From: an uncultured Thermoleophilia bacterium
GTDB lineage: Bacteria; Actinomycetota; Thermoleophilia; UBA2241
Direction of reading: 5' to 3'
Length of the DNA: 64,000 bases
Assembly: GCA_963702475.1 (NCBI GenBank)
Contig: CAVPCT010000001.1
Location: forward strand, 160,001-224,000
Position 1 is the stretch's first letter. Each line of letters begins with the position of its first letter. The notes below the pieces were generated by a model, which worked only from the letters and a program-made list of their open reading frames with translations, had not been told where the DNA came from and did not search any database. A program made the position numbers and the translations under genes. This document shows positions 50,989 through 58,131 of the stretch, in pieces.

Positions 50989-53340
50989 CTACTTGACGTT
51001 GTCCACGAAGACCGTCATGCCCGCGGAGGTCACGCTCCTGACGCGGATGCGCACGCCGAGTCCGGCCGGCACGGCGACTCCCGCTCCGGGAGTCTCCGGG
51101 AACCAGTACTGCCAGTCGTCGTTGAAGGCCGGCGCCGGCAGCTTGCCGGGCGCCTCACGTGCGCCCACGTTCACCCCTTCGCTGTAGTCCCGGAAGTAGA
51201 TGGATTGGGCGGGTGTGTGCCCGAGACCGAAGGCCGCGTCCCGCAGCTGGATGCGCGGCCGCCAGTAGCCCGTCGTGTCATCGTAGGCGACCCCATCCGG
51301 GTTGGGCCGGGCGTCGACCACCAGCCACCCGCCCTCACCGGGGTGCGCGCTGACGTTGTTGTCCGTCCAGAACGTGTCGCGATAGATGAGGTGGAGGCCC
51401 TCGTTGTACGAGTACCAGTCGACCCAGGAGGTGAGGTCGCGGTCGAACTCGTAGCAGTTCTGCAGGCCGGCGTCGCTGCCCTCGTGGGTGCGGAACTCGG
51501 CGATGTAGTAGTTGTCGGTGTACAGGGTCTTCTGGCCGTCCACGCGCAGCCAGCCGTCGCTCGTGAACGCGGCCTCGGGCAGCGGTATGCCCCCGACGGC
51601 GATGGAGGTGACCTCCCAGCCGCGCTGGGTGACACCGACGTCGGTGACGTAGCGGAAACGCAGCAGGACCTTCTGTCCCGCCCAGGGGCTCAGGTCGTAG
51701 CGCACCGGGCGAGCCCACTGTCCGGTGTCGGAGCCGGTGAGCGCCCACACGCCGTCGGCGATCTCCTCGGTGAGGCGGTCGCTCCGGACCGTGGTCCAGC
51801 TTGCGCCGCCGTCGGTGGAGACGAGGACGAAGCCGAAGTCGTACCCGTCCTCGATGTCGTACCAGGTGCGGAACGTGAGCGCGGGATCGGCGGCGGGGAC
51901 CGTGACCGGGCTGACCGTGGTCAGCGTGGTGTCGATGCCGTCGCCCATGTCCGAGTACCACTCGTTGGCTCCGTCCTTGACGCTGAGCTCGACGACGTGT
52001 CTGCGTTTGGGCAGCTGGATGATGAAGCTCGTGGAGTCCTCGGCGCCCGTGGCGGCTGGCTCCAGCCTGATGGTGGCGGACGTACCGCGCTTGACCACCT
52101 TGGGCGTGGTGAACCCGAGCGCGGCCTTGTCCCACGCGTTCATGGGACCGGGCGCGCTGCCGAGGCCCCACTCACGGCCGAGCCACGACCCCTGCGCCAT
52201 GACCGTCCAGAAGCCGGCCGCGTCCTGGGGGCTGCCGGCCGTGTCGTATTCGTCGGGCAGCCCGAGGTCGTGGGAGAACTCGTGGCAGAACACGCCCGGA
52301 TCGCCGTCTTCGGGATCGAGGGTGTACGGGAAGACCCAGATGCCCTCGCCCTGCGGGCCCTGTCCGTCGGTGTCCGGCACCATCATGCCGGGCAGGTCGC
52401 CGGGGCCGCCGTTGACGCTGTGGTAGATGCCCGAGGAGTGGGGCCAGATGGCGTCGGAGCCCTGCGCTCCGCCGCCTGCGCTCTGCCCGCTTCCGGCGTG
52501 GATGATGATGAGGTGGTCCACGTACCCGTCGGGTTGGGCGAAGTCGTCGCCGGCGATGCCGAACTGGTTCTCACGGTCGTAGTCGGCCCAGGGGAAGTCG
52601 GGGTTCTCGGCGGCGAACTTGAGCACCGCGTCGCGGGCCACGCGCCACGCAGGGCCGGTGAGATCGTCGGTGACCTCCCACGGCGTGCTGTCGGCGCCGT
52701 ACCACGACTCCGGCATGTCGAGCTTGACCCAGTTGCGGATCTCGCCCGCGACGGTGAAGGCGCCCTTGGACTGCTCCAGGAACCAGGTGCGCATGGTGGT
52801 GTCGTTGTCACCACGGTAGGAACCGGTGGCGTCGTACATCGGGAAGGAGTCGCCGAACAGCTCGAGCTGGTAGTGCCGGGGGGAGAAGTCGCCCGGCCAG
52901 AACGTGTTGTTATCGTCGGCGGACGGGGCGGGGATCTGCCCGTGCAGCGGTCCCGGCGTCATGGGTCCGGTCGGCGCCGGGGAGCCGGACGGCCACGCCT
53001 GGTCGCCGAACTCCACGAGGAGGACCAGCGCCTTGGTGGTGTAGGGCTGTGCGGCACCCCGCTCGCCGGTGCTCTTCCGGAGAAAGCTCGTCAGGGCGGT
53101 CTCGCCCCCGCTCGAGGTGCGCTCTACGAGGGGCGACTTGAGCTCGTACCGGGGAGCGGTGGCGTCCAGCGCACGCACCGCCCTGGCGGCCATGCGGCCG
53201 GTGGCCCAGGGCGCGATGACGCCGATGCGCTGGAGGTTACGCGCGATGAGGACCTCGTTCGGCGGCACGGCCCCGGCCGGCGCCGCCACGGCGAGCACGA
53301 GTAGAGTCGCGAGCACTGCCGCGACGGTGAGTCTGCGCAC
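50989..53340 (-). CDS. Secreted immune inhibitor A (M6) metalloprotease
   Basis: Signal peptide; ALVLLVEF, IIHAGSG, HEFSHDLGLPDEYD, WTVMAQGSW and LRFRYVTD. Confidence 0.92.
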   Translation of the reverse strand: MRRLTVAAVLATLLVLAVAAPAGAVPPNEVLIARNLQRIGVIAPWATGRMAARAVRALDATAPRYELKSPLVERTSSGGETALTSFLRKSTGERGAAQPYTTKALVLLVEFGDQAWPSGSPAPTGPMTPGPLHGQIPAPSADDNNTFWPGDFSPRHYQLELFGDSFPMYDATGSYRGDNDTTMRTWFLEQSKGAFTVAGEIRNWVKLDMPESWYGADSTPWEVTDDLTGPAWRVARDAVLKFAAENPDFPWADYDRENQFGIAGDDFAQPDGYVDHLIIIHAGSGQSAGGGAQGSDAIWPHSSGIYHSVNGGPGDLPGMMVPDTDGQGPQGEGIWVFPYTLDPEDGDPGVFCHEFSHDLGLPDEYDTAGSPQDAAGFWTVMAQGSWLGREWGLGSAPGPMNAWDKAALGFTTPKVVKRGTSATIRLEPAATGAEDSTSFIIQLPKRRHVVELSVKDGANEWYSDMGDGIDTTLTTVSPVTVPAADPALTFRTWYDIEDGYDFGFVLVSTDGGASWTTVRSDRLTEEIADGVWALTGSDTGQWARPVRYDLSPWAGQKVLLRFRYVTDVGVTQRGWEVTSIAVGGIPLPEAAFTSDGWLRVDGQKTLYTDNYYIAEFRTHEGSDAGLQNCYEFDRDLTSWVDWYSYNEGLHLIYRDTFWTDNNVSAHPGEGGWLVVDARPNPDGVAYDDTTGYWRPRIQLRDAAFGLGHTPAQSIYFRDYSEGVNVGAREAPGKLPAPAFNDDWQYWFPETPGAGVAVPAGLGVRIRVRSVTSAGMTVFVDNVK

Positions 53341-53496
53341 AGGTCCCTCCCTTGGTCCGCCCAGGCACGGGTACCGGCCGGCGGCTGTGCCCGCCGCCGG
53401 CCGGTCCGAGTGTACTGTGCCGCTCCCACGCGCGCGAACGCGCCGCAGGCCTTCACCGTCAGTGGTCGGCATCCGCGCCTCTTCCCTCAAGAAACG

Positions 53497-53532
53497 CCGC
53501 GGGGCGGGGCGCCTTTGCGCCCCGCCCCGCGG
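53497..53532 (-). terminator. Intrinsic terminator downstream of the FmdB-family gene
   Basis: Perfect 16-bp GC stem (CCGCGGGGCGGGGCGC), 4-nt loop, followed by CGTTTCTT on the minus strand. Confidence 0.75.
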
Positions 53533-53542
53533 GACCTCACGA

Positions 53543-53560
53543 GCGGCGCGACCGCGCCGC
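53543..53560 (-). promoter_or_regulatory. Candidate bacterial SECIS hairpin GCGGCGC-GGTC-GCGCCGC
   Basis: Begins exactly 11 nt after the TGA at 53572-53574; apical GGUC. Confidence 0.65.
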
Positions 53561-53565
53561 GGCGA

Positions 53566-53775
53566 TCAGCCTCAGCCGAAGCGGCTGCCGGCCGGAGCCG
53601 AGCAGCCGCCGCCGGAGCTGGAACCGCCCAGGCTCTTGAGGAAGCTCGTGAACTTCTGGTGCACGTCCTCGGAGCCACACTCCGGGCAGACGCGGTCCTC
53701 GTCCTTGAGGAATCCCTGGCGGAACACTTCGAAACGGTTGCCGCAGGCGTCGCAGACCAGATCGTAGGAAGCCAT
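53566..53775 (-). CDS. FmdB-family zinc-ribbon protein, candidate selenoprotein (ends ...CSAPAGSRFG-U-G). If TGA is a stop, the CDS is 53572-53775.
   Basis: MASYDLVCDACG..CPECGS, low-complexity tail, TGA GGC TGA, then a SECIS-like hairpin. GGAGGG RBS. Confidence 0.85.
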
Positions 53776-53800
53776 GACCCTCCACGCGGTTGGTGTCCTG

Positions 53801-53911: not shown

Positions 53912-54430
53912 ATGAGGCGCACCAGGACCGTCCACTTGTTCGCGGCACTCGCGCTGATCGTGTCCGCGGCGCTCGCAGGGGGGCTCGCCGGCGCCTGCGG
54001 GTCCTCGTCCTCCGACGCGGCCTCGTCCTCAGGCTCGCCCTCGGCCGAGGTGCCGTTCATCCCGGCGGACGACTTCGACATCGCGGCGTATGCAGGCAAG
54101 CCGCTGGTGGTCAACTACTTCGGCTCCTGGTGCCCTCCGTGCAACCTCGAGGCCCCGGCGCTCTCGTCCTGGCTTCAGTCCCACCCCGGCGCGCAGTTCG
54201 TCGGCATCGCCGTCGACGACACTGAGGACGGCGTGACCGGTTTCATGGACGAGCACGACCTCTCGTATCCTGTGGTCCTCGACCCGGGCTGGAACCTCGC
54301 CAACGAGAACGGGGTGAGCGGCGTGCCCACGACGATCTTCTACGACGCCGAGGGCAACGAGGTCGACCGCGTCGTCGGCGCCATCTCGGAGGCTCAGATC
54401 GACCTGAGCTACGCCAGGGCCTCCGAGTGA
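53912..54430 (+). CDS. TlpA/ResA-type thiol-disulfide oxidoreductase lipoprotein
   Basis: Lipobox LAGAC, VVNYFGSWCPPCNLEAP and GVPTTIF. Confidence 0.9.
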   Translation: MRRTRTVHLFAALALIVSAALAGGLAGACGSSSSDAASSSGSPSAEVPFIPADDFDIAAYAGKPLVVNYFGSWCPPCNLEAPALSSWLQSHPGAQFVGIAVDDTEDGVTGFMDEHDLSYPVVLDPGWNLANENGVSGVPTTIFYDAEGNEVDRVVGAISEAQIDLSYARASE

Positions 54431-54496: not shown

Positions 54497-55219
54497 GTGA
54501 TCGCCGTCACCGTCACCAGCCTCAGCCTCTCGGCCGCCGCCCTGGCGTTCGTCGCCGGGCTGCTGTCGTTCATCTCGCCCTGCGTCCTGCCGCTGCTCCC
54601 CGTGTATCTTTCCTTCATCTCCGGCGTAGGGGTGGACCGGCTGGGCGGGGAGCGCCGCCGGCTGCTGTGGACGTCGCTGCTCTTCGTGGCCGGCTTCACC
54701 GTGGTGTTCATGGTCATGGGGGCGGGCGCCGGCGGCGTCGGCCGGCTCCTCGTGCGGTATCGCCAGGAGCTGACCATCGTGGCCGGCGCCTTCGTGGCCT
54801 TCAGCGGCCTGGTGGTGGCCGGCGTCATCCCTCTGCCCAAGCCGGTGATGCGGGTCTCGCCCAAGCATCGCGGCGCCGGCGGAGCGTTCGTCACCGGCGC
54901 CGCTCTCGCGGTGGGCTGGACGCCGTGTGTCGGCTACGTCCTCGGCGCCATCCTCAGCATGGCCGCCTCCAGCCAGAGCGCCGCGGCCGGGTCGCTGCTC
55001 CTGCTCATCTACTCGCTCGGCCTGGGCGTGCCGTTCGTCCTCGCGGCCCTGGCCTTCGACTGGGTGAGCGCCCGCCTCAAGGTCATCAAGCGCCACTACC
55101 GCGGCATCCAGATCGGTGCCGGCGTGCTGCTCGCCGTCTTCGGTGTGCTCATGATGCTCGGCGTGCTCGACCGGCTCACTCGCTGGCTGCCGTACGTCGC
55201 CCCGCCGGGCGGTCTCTGA
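54497..55219 (+). CDS. ccdA: Cytochrome c biogenesis/thiol-reduction protein CcdA
   Basis: SFISPCVLPLLPVYL, GWTPCVG and YSLGLGVPF. Confidence 0.92.
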   Translation: MIAVTVTSLSLSAAALAFVAGLLSFISPCVLPLLPVYLSFISGVGVDRLGGERRRLLWTSLLFVAGFTVVFMVMGAGAGGVGRLLVRYRQELTIVAGAFVAFSGLVVAGVIPLPKPVMRVSPKHRGAGGAFVTGAALAVGWTPCVGYVLGAILSMAASSQSAAAGSLLLLIYSLGLGVPFVLAALAFDWVSARLKVIKRHYRGIQIGAGVLLAVFGVLMMLGVLDRLTRWLPYVAPPGGL

Positions 55220-55236
55220 GCGGTATCCTTGGGGCG

Positions 55237-58131
55237 ATGAGCCCCCGCCACCGCATCGCCGAGCCCACGCCCGAGGCTCGAGCCGCCGCCGAAGCCTTGC
55301 GACCGCTGGTCGCCGGCCAGATCTCCCTGTCGCCGCTGCAGCGCTGGCTGTACTCCACCGACGCCTCCAGCTACCGCGTGGTGCCCGACGCCGTCCTCGT
55401 GGCCGGCTCGGTCGACGACCTCCACGCGGTGATGGACGTGGCGCGCCGCTACGGCGTGCCCGTGGTGGCCCGCGGAGCGGCCAGCAGCTGCGCGGGCCAG
55501 GCCGTCGGTCCGGGCATCGCCGTTGACTGCTTTGGACTTGACCGGGTGCTCGCCATCGACCCGCGGGAGCGGACGGCGCGGGTCGAACCGGGCGTCGTCC
55601 AGGCCGCCCTCAACCGCGCCGCAGCCGTCCACGGCCTGGAGTTCGGACCCGACACGTCCACCGTGGACCAGGCCACCATCGGCGGCATGGTGGGCAACAA
55701 CTCGTCCGGTTCGCGGTCGATCGTGTACGGGGAGACCCGGGACAAGGTCCTGGAGGTCCGTGCCGTCCTCGCGGATGGGTCGGAGCTGACCGTGGGCGCC
55801 TGCGACGGCGAGGATCTTCGCAGCGGGCTGCGTGGGGCGGCGGCGGACGCTGTGGCGGCGGGTCTCGTGGCCGTCCGCGAGGCGTTCCGCCGCCCGATCG
55901 CAGACGACTATCCGCGCACCCGCCGCTGCACGACGGGCTACGACCTGCGCGCGCTGCTGGAGCCGCGGCCGAGGCTGGCCCGGCTCCTGGCCGGGTCAGA
56001 GGGCACCTTGGGCCTCTTCACCGGGATCGAGGTACGGCTGGACCCGCGCCCGGAACTGCGCGTGGGTGCGGCCCTCACCTTTCCGGCGCTGCGGCCTGCC
56101 CTGGAGGCGAACCTGGTCATCCTCGAGACCGGCCCTTCCGCGGTGGAGATGGTCGACCTGGTGCCGCTGCGGGCGGCTCCCAACCTCGCCGCGTACCGGC
56201 GCGTGGCCTCGCTGCTCGACGGTGACGAGCGGGCCATGCTCACGGTGGAGTACCAGGGCACGGAAGAGGATGCCCGGGCTGGGCTGGCGCGGCTGCGGGC
56301 CGTCGCCGGTGAGCTCGGTGCGGTCCGCGCGGTGTGGCTCGAGGAGGCGGCGGCCATGGCCGAGGCCGCCGCGTTGCGCCGTGCCGTGACGCCGCTGCTC
56401 ATGGGGGCGCCCGGCGCCGCCCGGCCCACGGCCTTCGTGGAGGACACGGCGGTGGCCCCCGAACGCCTGCCAGACTACCTGGACGCCTTCGAGGCGCTCG
56501 TCGCCGCGGCCGGCGCACGCGGCTCGTTCACCGGTCACGCTTCCGCGGGGTGCACGCACGTGCGGCCGCTGCTCGACCTGAAGACGGCGGCGGGCGTGCG
56601 GCAGATGGAGGAGCTCGCCGCAGGTGTGGCGCGTCTCGTGGCGGAGTACCACGGCGCCATCTCCGGCGAGCACGGCGTGGGGCGGGCGCGCAGCTGGGCC
56701 CTGCCCGGCGTGCTGGGGCAGGGCCTCTACGACGCCATGGTGGCCGTGAAGGACGTCTTCGACCCCGCCCGGTTGCTCGCTCCGGGCATCGTGGTCGACG
56801 GGCAAGGGGTGACCGAGGCCCTGCGGTACGGCGGCGACTACCGCGGGGGCCGCGCCTGGGCGCCGCGCCTGTCGTACGCCGCCGAGGGGGGGTTCGACGC
56901 GGCCGTGGAGCGCTGCTTCGGCGCCGGCCAGTGCAAGAAGACCACCGGCACCATGTGTCCGCCGGCCGCGGCCACCGGCAGCGAGGCGCGGGCCACCAGG
57001 GCGCGGGCCAATGCACTGCAGGGCGTGGTGTGCGGCGCCGTTCCCCTGGCGGCCATCTCCACCGAGGAGTTCCGCGAGGTCCTGGGCACGTGCGTCGCCT
57101 GCAAGGCGTGCAAGACCGAGTGCCCGGCCGGCGTGGACGTCGCCGCCCTCAAGGCGGAGTGGTTGGCGGAAGTGCGCGCCCGTGAGGGCGTGCCGCCTCT
57201 GGCACGTGTGGCCGGCGGCTTCCGTCGCGCGGCGGCTCTGGCGGCACCGTTCGCTCCCCTCGTCAACGCCGCCGCCGGCACCCGCGCCGCACGCGCCGTC
57301 GCCGGCCGCTTGGGTGTCGCCGGTCGCCGGTCGCTCCCGCCGCTGGCGCGCCGGCCGCTCACGCGCCGCCTGCCGTCCTGCGGCGCCGAGGCCGGCAGGG
57401 CGCCCTCCGCCGGCCGGCCCTCCGCCGCCCTGTTCGTCGACTGCTTCGTGCAGTACCAGGAGCCTGAGGTGGGCGAGGCGCTCGCCGCGCTGCTGCGCGC
57501 CGCCGGCGTGCCGCTCGCCCTCGTCGATGCCGGCTGCTGCGGCCGTACGGCGCTGTCCACGGGGCAGATCGACAAGGCCCGCCGGGCTGCGGACCGTGCC
57601 TTGCGCGCGCTGGCGGAACATGCCGCCCGCGGCGAGCAGCTCCTCTTCGTCGAGCCGAGCTGCCTCTCCATGGTGCTCGACGACTGGCATCGGCTGCTGC
57701 CGGGCGACCCGCGCCTCGGCCCTGTCGCCGCGGCCGCGCGCCCCGCGCTCGGCCTGGTGGCCGATCTCGCGGAGAAGGGCCGCCTGCGCTTCCGCCCCGG
57801 CGGCCCAGCCCTCCTCCATGCGCACTGCCACGAGAAGGCCCTGGGCTTCCAGGCCGACACGGAGCGCGCCCTGCGCGCCGTCCCCGGCCTGGCCCTGCAG
57901 GCGCTGGACGCCGGCTGCTGTGGCATGTCCGGCGTCTTCGGCTACGAGGCCGAGCACTACGACCTCAGCGTCGCCATGGCGGAGCGCGTGCTCCTGCCGG
58001 CGGTGCGGGCCGCGCCGCCGGCCGCCGCCGTGCTCGCCACCGGCACATCGTGCCGCGCACAGCTCGCCGATCTGTCCGGCCGGCGGGCGGAGCACCCGTT
58101 GACCTTCCTGGCCGGGAGCCTCAGCCGCTGA
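55237..58131 (+). CDS. FAD-binding and Fe-S-binding oxidoreductase (GlcD/GlcF-like fusion, YdiJ/Dld-II type)
   Basis: ATIGGMVGNNSSG, GSEGTLG, SGEHGVG, CFGAGQC, CVACKACKTECP, CCGR and CCGMSG. Confidence 0.92.
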   Translation: MSPRHRIAEPTPEARAAAEALRPLVAGQISLSPLQRWLYSTDASSYRVVPDAVLVAGSVDDLHAVMDVARRYGVPVVARGAASSCAGQAVGPGIAVDCFGLDRVLAIDPRERTARVEPGVVQAALNRAAAVHGLEFGPDTSTVDQATIGGMVGNNSSGSRSIVYGETRDKVLEVRAVLADGSELTVGACDGEDLRSGLRGAAADAVAAGLVAVREAFRRPIADDYPRTRRCTTGYDLRALLEPRPRLARLLAGSEGTLGLFTGIEVRLDPRPELRVGAALTFPALRPALEANLVILETGPSAVEMVDLVPLRAAPNLAAYRRVASLLDGDERAMLTVEYQGTEEDARAGLARLRAVAGELGAVRAVWLEEAAAMAEAAALRRAVTPLLMGAPGAARPTAFVEDTAVAPERLPDYLDAFEALVAAAGARGSFTGHASAGCTHVRPLLDLKTAAGVRQMEELAAGVARLVAEYHGAISGEHGVGRARSWALPGVLGQGLYDAMVAVKDVFDPARLLAPGIVVDGQGVTEALRYGGDYRGGRAWAPRLSYAAEGGFDAAVERCFGAGQCKKTTGTMCPPAAATGSEARATRARANALQGVVCGAVPLAAISTEEFREVLGTCVACKACKTECPAGVDVAALKAEWLAEVRAREGVPPLARVAGGFRRAAALAAPFAPLVNAAAGTRAARAVAGRLGVAGRRSLPPLARRPLTRRLPSCGAEAGRAPSAGRPSAALFVDCFVQYQEPEVGEALAALLRAAGVPLALVDAGCCGRTALSTGQIDKARRAADRALRALAEHAARGEQLLFVEPSCLSMVLDDWHRLLPGDPRLGPVAAAARPALGLVADLAEKGRLRFRPGGPALLHAHCHEKALGFQADTERALRAVPGLALQALDAGCCGMSGVFGYEAEHYDLSVAMAERVLLPAVRAAPPAAAVLATGTSCRAQLADLSGRRAEHPLTFLAGSLSR

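Follow-up and report, generated by a model that had tools for sequence, protein, structure and literature searches.

A minus-strand gene in a 64,000-nt stretch of an uncultured Thermoleophilia genome (contig CAVPCT010000001.1 of assembly GCA_963702475.1, positions 160,001 to 224,000; hereafter the window) encodes a small zinc-ribbon protein of the FmdB family whose reading frame probably continues through its first UGA. We propose that this UGA is decoded as selenocysteine (Sec), giving a 69-residue FmdB selenoprotein that ends in C58-x9-Sec68-Gly69, and, judging from sequence comparisons, we put the probability of this reading at about 0.88. The first-pass annotation of the window had suggested that the first UGA is Sec and the second, one codon later, the stop; conservation, covariation, phyletic pattern and the Sec machinery of the source genome (4.3 Mb in 9 contigs, 93.8% complete, 70% G+C) all support that suggestion. 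From the same evidence we infer SelB binding and actual Sec insertion at UGA68.

The elements of the locus, numbered by window position, are these:

53569 to 53775, minus strand: proposed FmdB-family coding sequence, M1 to G67, Sec68 and Gly69, 69 codons (open reading frame (ORF) translation and matches to hidden Markov models)
53572 to 53574, minus strand: UGA proposed as the Sec codon, residue 68 (orthologue conservation, the Gly codon next to it and one Cys homologue)
53566 to 53568, minus strand: UGA read as the true stop, 5 nt upstream of the hairpin (sequence and orthologue tails)
53778 to 53783, minus strand: Shine–Dalgarno-like GGAGGG, 2 nt 5′ of the ATG (read from the sequence)
53543 to 53560, minus strand: hairpin resembling a selenocysteine insertion sequence (SECIS), with a 7-bp stem GCGGCGC/GCGCCGC and the apical loop GGUC at 53553–53550 (minimum-energy fold, conservation and covariation)
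53497 to 53532, minus strand: intrinsic terminator-like hairpin of 16 G–C pairs followed by the T-rich CGTTTCTT (one found against 0.2 expected in shuffled sequences)

FmdB proteins carry two CxxC motifs that start close to the initiator Met, and the C-terminal region behind them is degenerate and of low complexity. Starting at an ATG at 53775–53773, the 67 codons up to the first TGA encode such a protein: the ribbon motifs C8xxC11 and C30xxC33 (CxxC-x18-CxxC) precede a Gly/Ser linker, GGSSSGGG, and the model PF09723 (Zn_ribbon_8) matches residues 1–41 with an E-value of 4.3e-12 (46.3 bits against a cut-off of 34.4), as does TIGR02605 (CxxC_CxxC_SSSS) residues 1–45 with 41.3 bits against a cut-off of 31.3. 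All four ribbon Cys residues are invariant in the orthologue alignment. Neither CxxC contains a TGA, and the sole UGA within the gene is codon 68. The ORF ends in GGGC58-SAPAGSRFG67, so that a Cys lies ten positions before the TGA (C-x9-TGA); the codon GGC (53571–53569), the second TGA and a spacer, TCGCC (53565–53561), then lead into the hairpin, whose stem begins exactly 11 nt after the first TGA and whose loop lies 18 nt from it. The coordinates, the 67-residue ORF, the TGA-GGC-TGA sequence, the C-x9-TGA arrangement and the 7-bp GCGGCGC-GGTC-GCGCCGC hairpin at this spacing had all been described in the first-pass annotation and are exact on the minus strand, and the separate strong terminator that it placed 3′ of the hairpin corresponds to the 16-pair stem at 53532–53497. 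Because the terminator lies further 3′, the SECIS-like hairpin sits within the transcript. Contigs from an oligo-dT soil RNA run (X20) cover only the 5′ part of the gene, 53648–53794, with DNA carry-over possible and with the 3′ end and hairpin uncovered; one of these contigs has 8 differences and thus derives from a relative.

In the proposed mechanism, with a ribosome at UGA68, the hairpin 11 nt downstream would tether SelB-GTP-Sec-tRNA(Sec); Sec would be inserted, followed by Gly69 and termination at the second UGA, and partial termination at the first UGA would be expected to leave some 67-residue product. Since Sec would be the penultimate residue, the SelB-binding hairpin would lie past the true stop, within the 3′ untranslated region (UTR). 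The second UGA should terminate translation because, from what is established about recoding, its distance of 5 nt from the stem is too short. The hairpin is the minimum-energy structure of this stretch, and GGUC is also the apex of the SECIS of Escherichia coli fdhF. An invariant or conserved G in the apical loop is described as a hallmark of bacterial SECIS elements in the available texts of two sources (PMC4607533; preprint 10.1101/2022.07.06.499078), and the 18-nt distance from UGA to loop falls inside the bacterial range of 16–37 nt given in the text of a third (PMC10778597).

Conservation of the terminal module

Several lines of comparative evidence support the Sec reading. First, all 24 same-genus genomes searched and, in total, 35 of 41 relatives gave an orthologue match, and the tails of these proteins follow a common plan. 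Among 30 loci from relatives, 22 have FG, TGA, one codon (GGC in 21, CGC in 1), TGA and the identical 18-nt hairpin; 6 more distant ones have TGA, one or two codons and then TGA, TAA or TAG, and 2 do not fit. With one genome scanned per species, 80 loci were obtained, all from metagenome-assembled genomes (MAGs) labelled Thermoleophilia, Actinomycetota or similar, with the same arrangement at 70 and other, mostly Cys-rich, tails at 10. When all loci are pooled into 106 unique FmdB ORFs, 94 show a TGA, at most three codons and a stop, the second stop being TGA in 86, TAG in 5 and TAA in 3; the codon directly after the first TGA encodes Gly in 82 of these 94 tails (GGC 75, GGG 5, GGA 1, GGT 1). 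Homologues ending at this point in TAA or TAG, which the first-pass annotation had named as a telling counter-example, were looked for and are absent from the pooled loci: no FG, YG, FT, FS or HG tail runs into TAA, TAG or a long open frame, and all such tails continue with TGA, one or two codons and a stop.

These tails bear directly on a rival explanation, that translation simply ends at the first TGA, which a second backs up in a TGA-GGC-TGA tandem, with the hairpin serving some other role in the 3′ UTR, such as stability, regulation or termination. Among the stops of this genome TGA is the most frequent (2964 of 4128 ORF ends with a 100-codon filter, or 3416 of 5793 coding-like ORF ends), which suits a tandem stop. 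It leaves unexplained, however, why the Gly codon after the first TGA is kept through synonymous changes, and why the extensions are always of one to three codons and closed by any of the three stops.

Second, a conservation profile built from 53 distinct orthologues places the constraint on the module itself. The proposed Sec codon is TGA in 53 of 53 sequences, TGA-GGC-TGA is 96–100% conserved and the hairpin 99.9%. The spacer from stop to hairpin, 4–6 nt long, occurs in 42 different sequences, the 15 nt 3′ of the hairpin reach a majority identity of 47%, and third codon positions upstream reach 83%. An 18-nt non-coding block is thus conserved above the coding sequence while its flanks are free to vary, which argues that it is selected in its own right.

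Third, the stem covaries. Among 12 distinct GGTC-loop hairpins from more distant loci, four of the seven stem pairs are altered on both sides (G–C to C–G, A–U and so on), and the four loop bases GGTC are invariant. Paired cells make up 95.2% of the total against 83% in shuffles, a comparison in which the hairpins had been picked beforehand for 5 or more paired positions out of 7, a choice that tilts the comparison towards pairing and leaves the double changes unaffected. None of 500 shuffles equalled the covariation score, and the signal is gone when the partner is shifted by 1–3 columns. In other lineages the stems differ and the loops read GUNG, CGUGA/CGUGC or AGUU, at the same distance from the UGA. 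The hairpin, whose conservation the first-pass annotation had proposed to examine, is therefore both conserved among homologues and maintained by compensatory change, and an invariant loop on a covarying stem sits poorly with a mere back-up stop.

Fourth, three paralogues share the module. The 4.3 Mb genome holds the exact 18-mer three times, in every case 11–13 nt past the terminal TGA of an FmdB-type ORF; the other two copies follow genes on contig 4 (L052, about 327399–327629, minus strand, tail ..GYG-U-GC*, directly downstream of an ArsR-family helix-turn-helix gene) and contig 5 (L053, about 484098–484330, minus strand, tail ..CHHG-U-G*). Among 17 loci of the contig-4 type from relatives, 15 read ..G[YF]G-TGA-G(C or R)-stop followed by the hairpin, and 2 could not be parsed. 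This sharing of the module among three paralogues is again hard to reconcile with a simple tandem stop.

In a genome-wide background scan with a coding filter of 50 codons, 3414 coding-like ORFs end in TGA. A second stop comes within one or two codons in 98 of them, and in 8 a 7-bp hairpin whose 4-nt loop contains GT lies 9–14 nt downstream. Both features together are found at 4 genes, against about 0.2 expected under independence, so that the combination, unlike the hairpin alone, exceeds chance; three of the four are the FmdB paralogues. The fourth (contig 5, 781820–782251, plus strand; L054/L265) encodes a predicted secreted protein of about 141 residues and ends ..WFTPKYS-TGA-GGA-CCC-TGA, with GCCCGGC-GGTC-GCCGGGC 10 nt past the first TGA and then a terminator. 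Its three orthologues, about 60% identical, end ..Y[ST]-TGA, two codons and a stop, with a hairpin of loop CGUGU, and four more distant paralogues end ..KPNYN-TGA and lack the pattern. By sequence, this gene probably encodes a second, unrelated C-terminal selenoprotein.

Two other identities for the hairpin were considered and rejected: a terminator, since it has no T tract and a real terminator lies downstream, and a REP-like or mobile repeat, since there are only three copies in the genome, all in one context. Separately, contigs from two DNA metagenome runs (X2 and X7) match the window only over 53543–53590, a 46–48-nt module made up of the last codons, TGA-GGC-TGA and the hairpin, and diverge on both flanks, which suggests that other genes or organisms in those communities carry the module as well.

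Fifth, a homologue carries Cys in place of the proposed Sec. The protein P0078 ends ..GSGFG-Cys-Gly, with Cys aligned to the UGA, which answers positively the question of Cys alignment raised in the first-pass annotation; a Cys-Gly-stop homologue at this same position is a further difficulty for a tandem stop. Among the 120 closest database proteins listed, 113 stop at FG and none is extended; these FG-ending relatives are named 'FmdB family regulatory protein' or 'zinc ribbon domain-containing protein'. That public annotation ends the protein here is as a tandem stop would have it, and it is equally the truncation by standard pipelines that had been foreseen for a selenoprotein.

Distant relatives of the non-Sec type instead have Cys-rich tails, for example ..CCGGSCGCG(H) or ..CSSCSxxxCSSC(H). 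We also note an FmdB orthologue in a Thermoleophilia-labelled MAG (L126) that has the same TlpA/CcdA surroundings as the gene in the window and ends ..GRCCGPLGQR-TAA, with no UGA; its Cys-Cys tail may be a Cys-type substitute for the one with Sec.

Selenocysteine machinery and phyletic pattern

The source genome has the components that decoding would require. Contig 3 carries selD, selA and selB next to one another, and about 17 kb from them lies a tRNA-Sec (68.3 bits; called SeC with anticodon TCA by ARAGORN), so that each of the four factors for which the first-pass annotation had advised a search is accounted for. Two other selenoprotein genes provide reference elements. One is selD itself (contig 3, 145461–146408, plus strand; L018), which has a single in-frame TGA (..FAAKSG-U-AAKLG..) followed, after 11 nt, by a 5-bp stem with the loop CGUGC. 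The other encodes a Bcp/PrxQ-type peroxiredoxin with Sec at the peroxidatic position (..FFYPKATTGG-U-TTEA..; contig 6, TGA at 284040, plus strand; L167:615-1061), where a 7-bp stem with the loop AGUU starts after 9 nt; its in-frame TGA is kept in four of five relatives tested. Both elements resemble the candidate in their short distance from the UGA and in the GU of the apical loop. A scan of the same genome also returned three internal-TGA candidates (contig 3, minus strand; contig 5, plus; contig 8, plus), for example ..VSTIVT-U-CAAAQ.., with coding-like flanks on both sides and a GU-loop hairpin; these are unverified and were not used as support.

The tails also follow the machinery across the class. 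Of the 24 same-genus genomes, 19 have SelA above cut-off, and it is likewise found in class families f3, f4, f5 and f6. It was not detected in four genomes of family f2 that are 97–99% complete, and there the FmdB tails are only Cys-rich or PP-ending, with TAA, TAG or TGA as the first stop; SelA-positive genomes of f4 and f6 have tails of the form F[GST]-TGA-x(1–2)-stop. If the arrangement were a tandem stop, there would be no reason for relatives without detected SelA to lack it; nor would there be a reason for the hairpin to be followed by a separate terminator.

Five same-genus bins, G004 (93% complete), G022 (90%), G012, G016 and G011, have no detected SelA or SelB and no convincing tRNA-Sec. 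The missing fractions of the 24 bins sum to about 3.5 expected absences of SelA, against the 5 observed. Four of these five bins retain an in-frame TGA at the peroxiredoxin active site, which indicates that these bins use Sec and that the sel region of about 22 kb most likely went unbinned; the objection is weakened to that extent, and true loss of Sec use in these bins was rejected on the same grounds.

The same bins bear on a second alternative, in which the SECIS and UGA are real and decoding is inefficient or conditional on selenium, so that the 67-residue form is the main product and the Sec form minor or regulated. The absence of detectable sel genes from the five bins would fit this, as would the shortness of the hairpin, at 7 bp, and the competition of Sec decoding at bacterial UGA codons with release factor 2. 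It is opposed by the Sec-dependent peroxiredoxin retained in four of the five bins and by the strong purifying selection on the UGA, the Gly codon, the stop and the hairpin across the 53 orthologues and three paralogues, which argues that the extended product matters. We regard mainly inefficient or conditional decoding as unlikely.

Beyond the clade, tails of this kind were examined in two further samples. A profile search of 1.84 billion representative sequences returned 4241 matches at E <= 0.001; 57 of the 140 small proteins within the best 150 of these 4241 end in [FYH][GST], typically as ..C-x(3–10)-G-F-G/S/T, so the class may be large. An independent set at the DNA level comprises 72 metagenome FmdB loci with complete ends, from a divergent group of lower G+C content whose proteins start MPIYE[YF]xC. 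All six tails ending in F[GSTV] are followed by TGA, at most two codons and a stop, and all six have a stem-loop 10–15 nt downstream, with GU in the loop in five (the loop of L242 is CGGGA). The other 66, with Cys-rich tails, end in TGA (31), TAA (20) or TAG (15), and a second stop follows within two codons in 7. The tail motif thus predicts the UGA and hairpin in an independent set.

Several observations weigh against the Sec reading. The stability of the hairpin is ordinary (z = -0.67), with 44 of 200 shuffled sequences folding equally well or better, and this 70% G+C genome contains 57 perfect GGTC-loop stems of at least 6 bp. An Rfam scan of 351 nt in E-value mode returned no SECIS family, the best match (E 0.29) being to unrelated families and the chance-level matches falling mostly on the terminator; no NCBIfam selenoprotein model matches the gene. 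The frame past the UGA is only one to three codons long, which is weaker evidence than an internal Sec would give; an exact Cys at the UGA position is found in only one of the 120 close relatives listed; and the genomes compared are kin, so that counts drawn from them are non-independent. To these are added the five bins without detected sel genes and the prior choice of hairpins for the covariation analysis. On its own the hairpin is unremarkable, and the case for its function must rest on comparison. Its ordinary energy and the absence of an Rfam or NCBIfam match also favour a tandem stop, which we nevertheless consider very unlikely given the points raised against it above.

Neighbouring genes and possible roles of the tail

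The Sec-type gene is divergent from two genes on the plus strand, with which it shares an intergenic region of about 136 bp:

53912 to 54430, plus strand: TlpA/ResA-like lipoprotein with a thioredoxin fold (Pfam AhpC-TSA, Redoxin and Thioredoxin-like)
54497 to 55219, plus strand: CcdA/DsbD-type transmembrane thiol-disulfide electron transporter (Pfam DsbD_TM, E 2.6e-16)

The TlpA-like ORF as called starts at 53774, and its probable start is the Met at 53912, before a signal/lipobox-like LAGAC. Of 97 Sec-type loci, which are kin, 80 have a TlpA-like neighbour, in divergent orientation at 74; the other 17, mostly from distant lineages, lack it, which weighs against a functional link. A CcdA/DsbD-type gene is found at 75 of 109 related loci.

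Two further ORFs flank this group. Downstream of the FmdB gene, 50989–53490 on the minus strand encodes an InhA-like M6 metallopeptidase with catalytic, MAM-like and VEG domains. Beyond CcdA, a long ORF at 54667–58131 on the plus strand combines FAD-linked oxidase, 4Fe-4S dicluster and CCG domains; its start as called overlaps CcdA and the real one is probably later.

The conserved tail has the consensus C-[AS]-x-P-x(3–5)-F-G-U-G and follows the Gly/Ser linker, a flexible segment that would carry the Cys58...Sec68 pair on the zinc-ribbon scaffold. Cys58 and Sec68 could cycle through a selenenylsulfide as a swinging redox tail. Because genes for TlpA-like and CcdA proteins adjoin the locus, the former at 80 of 97 loci, we tentatively propose that such a redox-active tail may feed a TlpA-like/CcdA thiol-disulfide relay, at odds clearly below even.

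About equally likely, in our estimate, is that the Cys...Sec tail acts mainly as a ligand for a metal or metalloid, in a chaperone, a sensor or a detoxification protein. The Cys-rich tails of non-Sec relatives and the position of the contig-4 paralogue after an ArsR-family gene are consistent with this possibility, and a metal-binding role has been suggested for the C-terminal Sec of the SaoC and UXX-star families in the available text of a review (PMC13188914). The link of the gene's own orthologue group to the thiol-disulfide relay speaks for a redox role instead, and no metal-handling gene was seen beside the gene in the window.

A broader proposal, which we offer as doubtful, is that these proteins form a large and taxonomically broad class of zinc-ribbon selenoproteins of 60–75 residues that annotation has missed, with three paralogues in this genome and F[GST]-Sec-x(1–2)-stop tails in unrelated metagenome lineages; their swinging tail would serve as a dedicated cytoplasmic selenol/thiol donor of electrons to the extracytoplasmic CcdA–TlpA pathway and so feed cytochrome and thiol maturation independently of thioredoxin.

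Comparison with known systems

FmdB selenoproteins have been listed before. The Global Ocean Sampling (GOS) marine metagenome study, in its available text, reports FmdB 'putative regulatory protein' selenoproteins with 2 Sec sequences and 807 Cys homologues (PMC2398784), and the listing is repeated in the corresponding parts of two reviews (PMC9312934, PMC13188914). The caution in the first-pass annotation about novelty at the level of the family was therefore well placed. These proteins belong to the same zinc-ribbon family (TIGR02605) as the gene described here, and the site differs: in the texts available, Sec lies in a CxxU motif (later given as U/CxxU and UxxU) and no accession is given, whereas here the ribbon is all-Cys and Sec lies in a C-x9-U-G tail. 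A C-terminal F-G-U-G form of FmdB appears in no NCBIfam model and not in the available texts of the literature searched, which included the deep-Sep and BSepDB papers, the 2022 and 2026 reviews and the Haft & Gwadz and Actinomarina preprints, and to which supplements may add further families.

If Sec is inserted as we propose, annotation pipelines truncate this gene and at least two paralogues per genome, and all 113 FG-ending database relatives lack their reactive residue. A sizeable part of the Sec used by Thermoleophilia-like Actinomycetota may then go into this class, and the Cys...Sec pair of the flexible tail would offer a testable chemical handle on the FmdB family, whose function is obscure. 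A selenoprotein-flagged model of the NCBIfam type, combining the F-G-U-G tail and the hairpin, would correct many annotations.

Several known families share part of this arrangement. NF041197 (CxxC_Se_CxxC) describes a protein of similarly small size that carries two CxxC motifs and has a Sec form; it does not match the locus, and its best matches elsewhere in the genome have E >= 0.9. DUF466/KCU-star (NF033934) and SaoC (Cys-Cys-COOH, NF040734) are likewise small, have Sec at the end and a SECIS past the stop, and are truncated by gene callers; in the available texts, SaoC has UGA-UAG and a 7-bp stem with the loop GGU (preprint 10.1101/2022.07.06.499078), and DUF466 has U followed by TAA or TAG (PMC4607533). 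Their folds are unrelated, however, and Sec is the last residue, in a CU dipeptide, whereas here it is penultimate, in C-x9-U-G. An NCBIfam search with E up to 1 matched no KCU-star, SaoC or UXX-star model to the locus. In the UXX-star families (NF041114; NF041211, 'gluta_UXX_star_2'), compared here through the available table of a review, Sec lies 1–3 residues before the stop and GxGU resembles the G-F-G-U of the present tail; NF041211 is glutaredoxin-like and matches, below cut-off, other loci in this genome and not the gene in the window.

The likeness to mammalian thioredoxin reductase drawn in the first-pass annotation holds in part. In both, a penultimate Sec followed by Gly lies on a flexible C-terminal tail; the reductase, however, has adjacent Cys and Sec (Gly-Cys-Sec-Gly) and a flavoprotein domain, whereas here both that adjacent pair and the flavoprotein domain are lacking, the Cys lies 10 positions upstream and the remainder is a 57-residue zinc ribbon and linker. 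The reductase, in its rat and human forms expressed in E. coli, also provides an engineered precedent for the layout, the natural ones being DUF466/KCU-star and SaoC. According to the available text of a later source (PMC10778597), Arner et al. in 1999 had E. coli make the mammalian enzyme by means of an engineered SECIS past the stop, and the present locus would be a natural counterpart of that design, with a SECIS in the 3′ UTR at a fixed distance from the UGA, adding a natural bacterial SECIS-after-stop with a penultimate Sec-Gly. We thus place the finding in a known domain family, as a new Sec site and probably a subfamily that is large and unannotated, in which a known mode of decoding goes with a layout that is rare but precedented.

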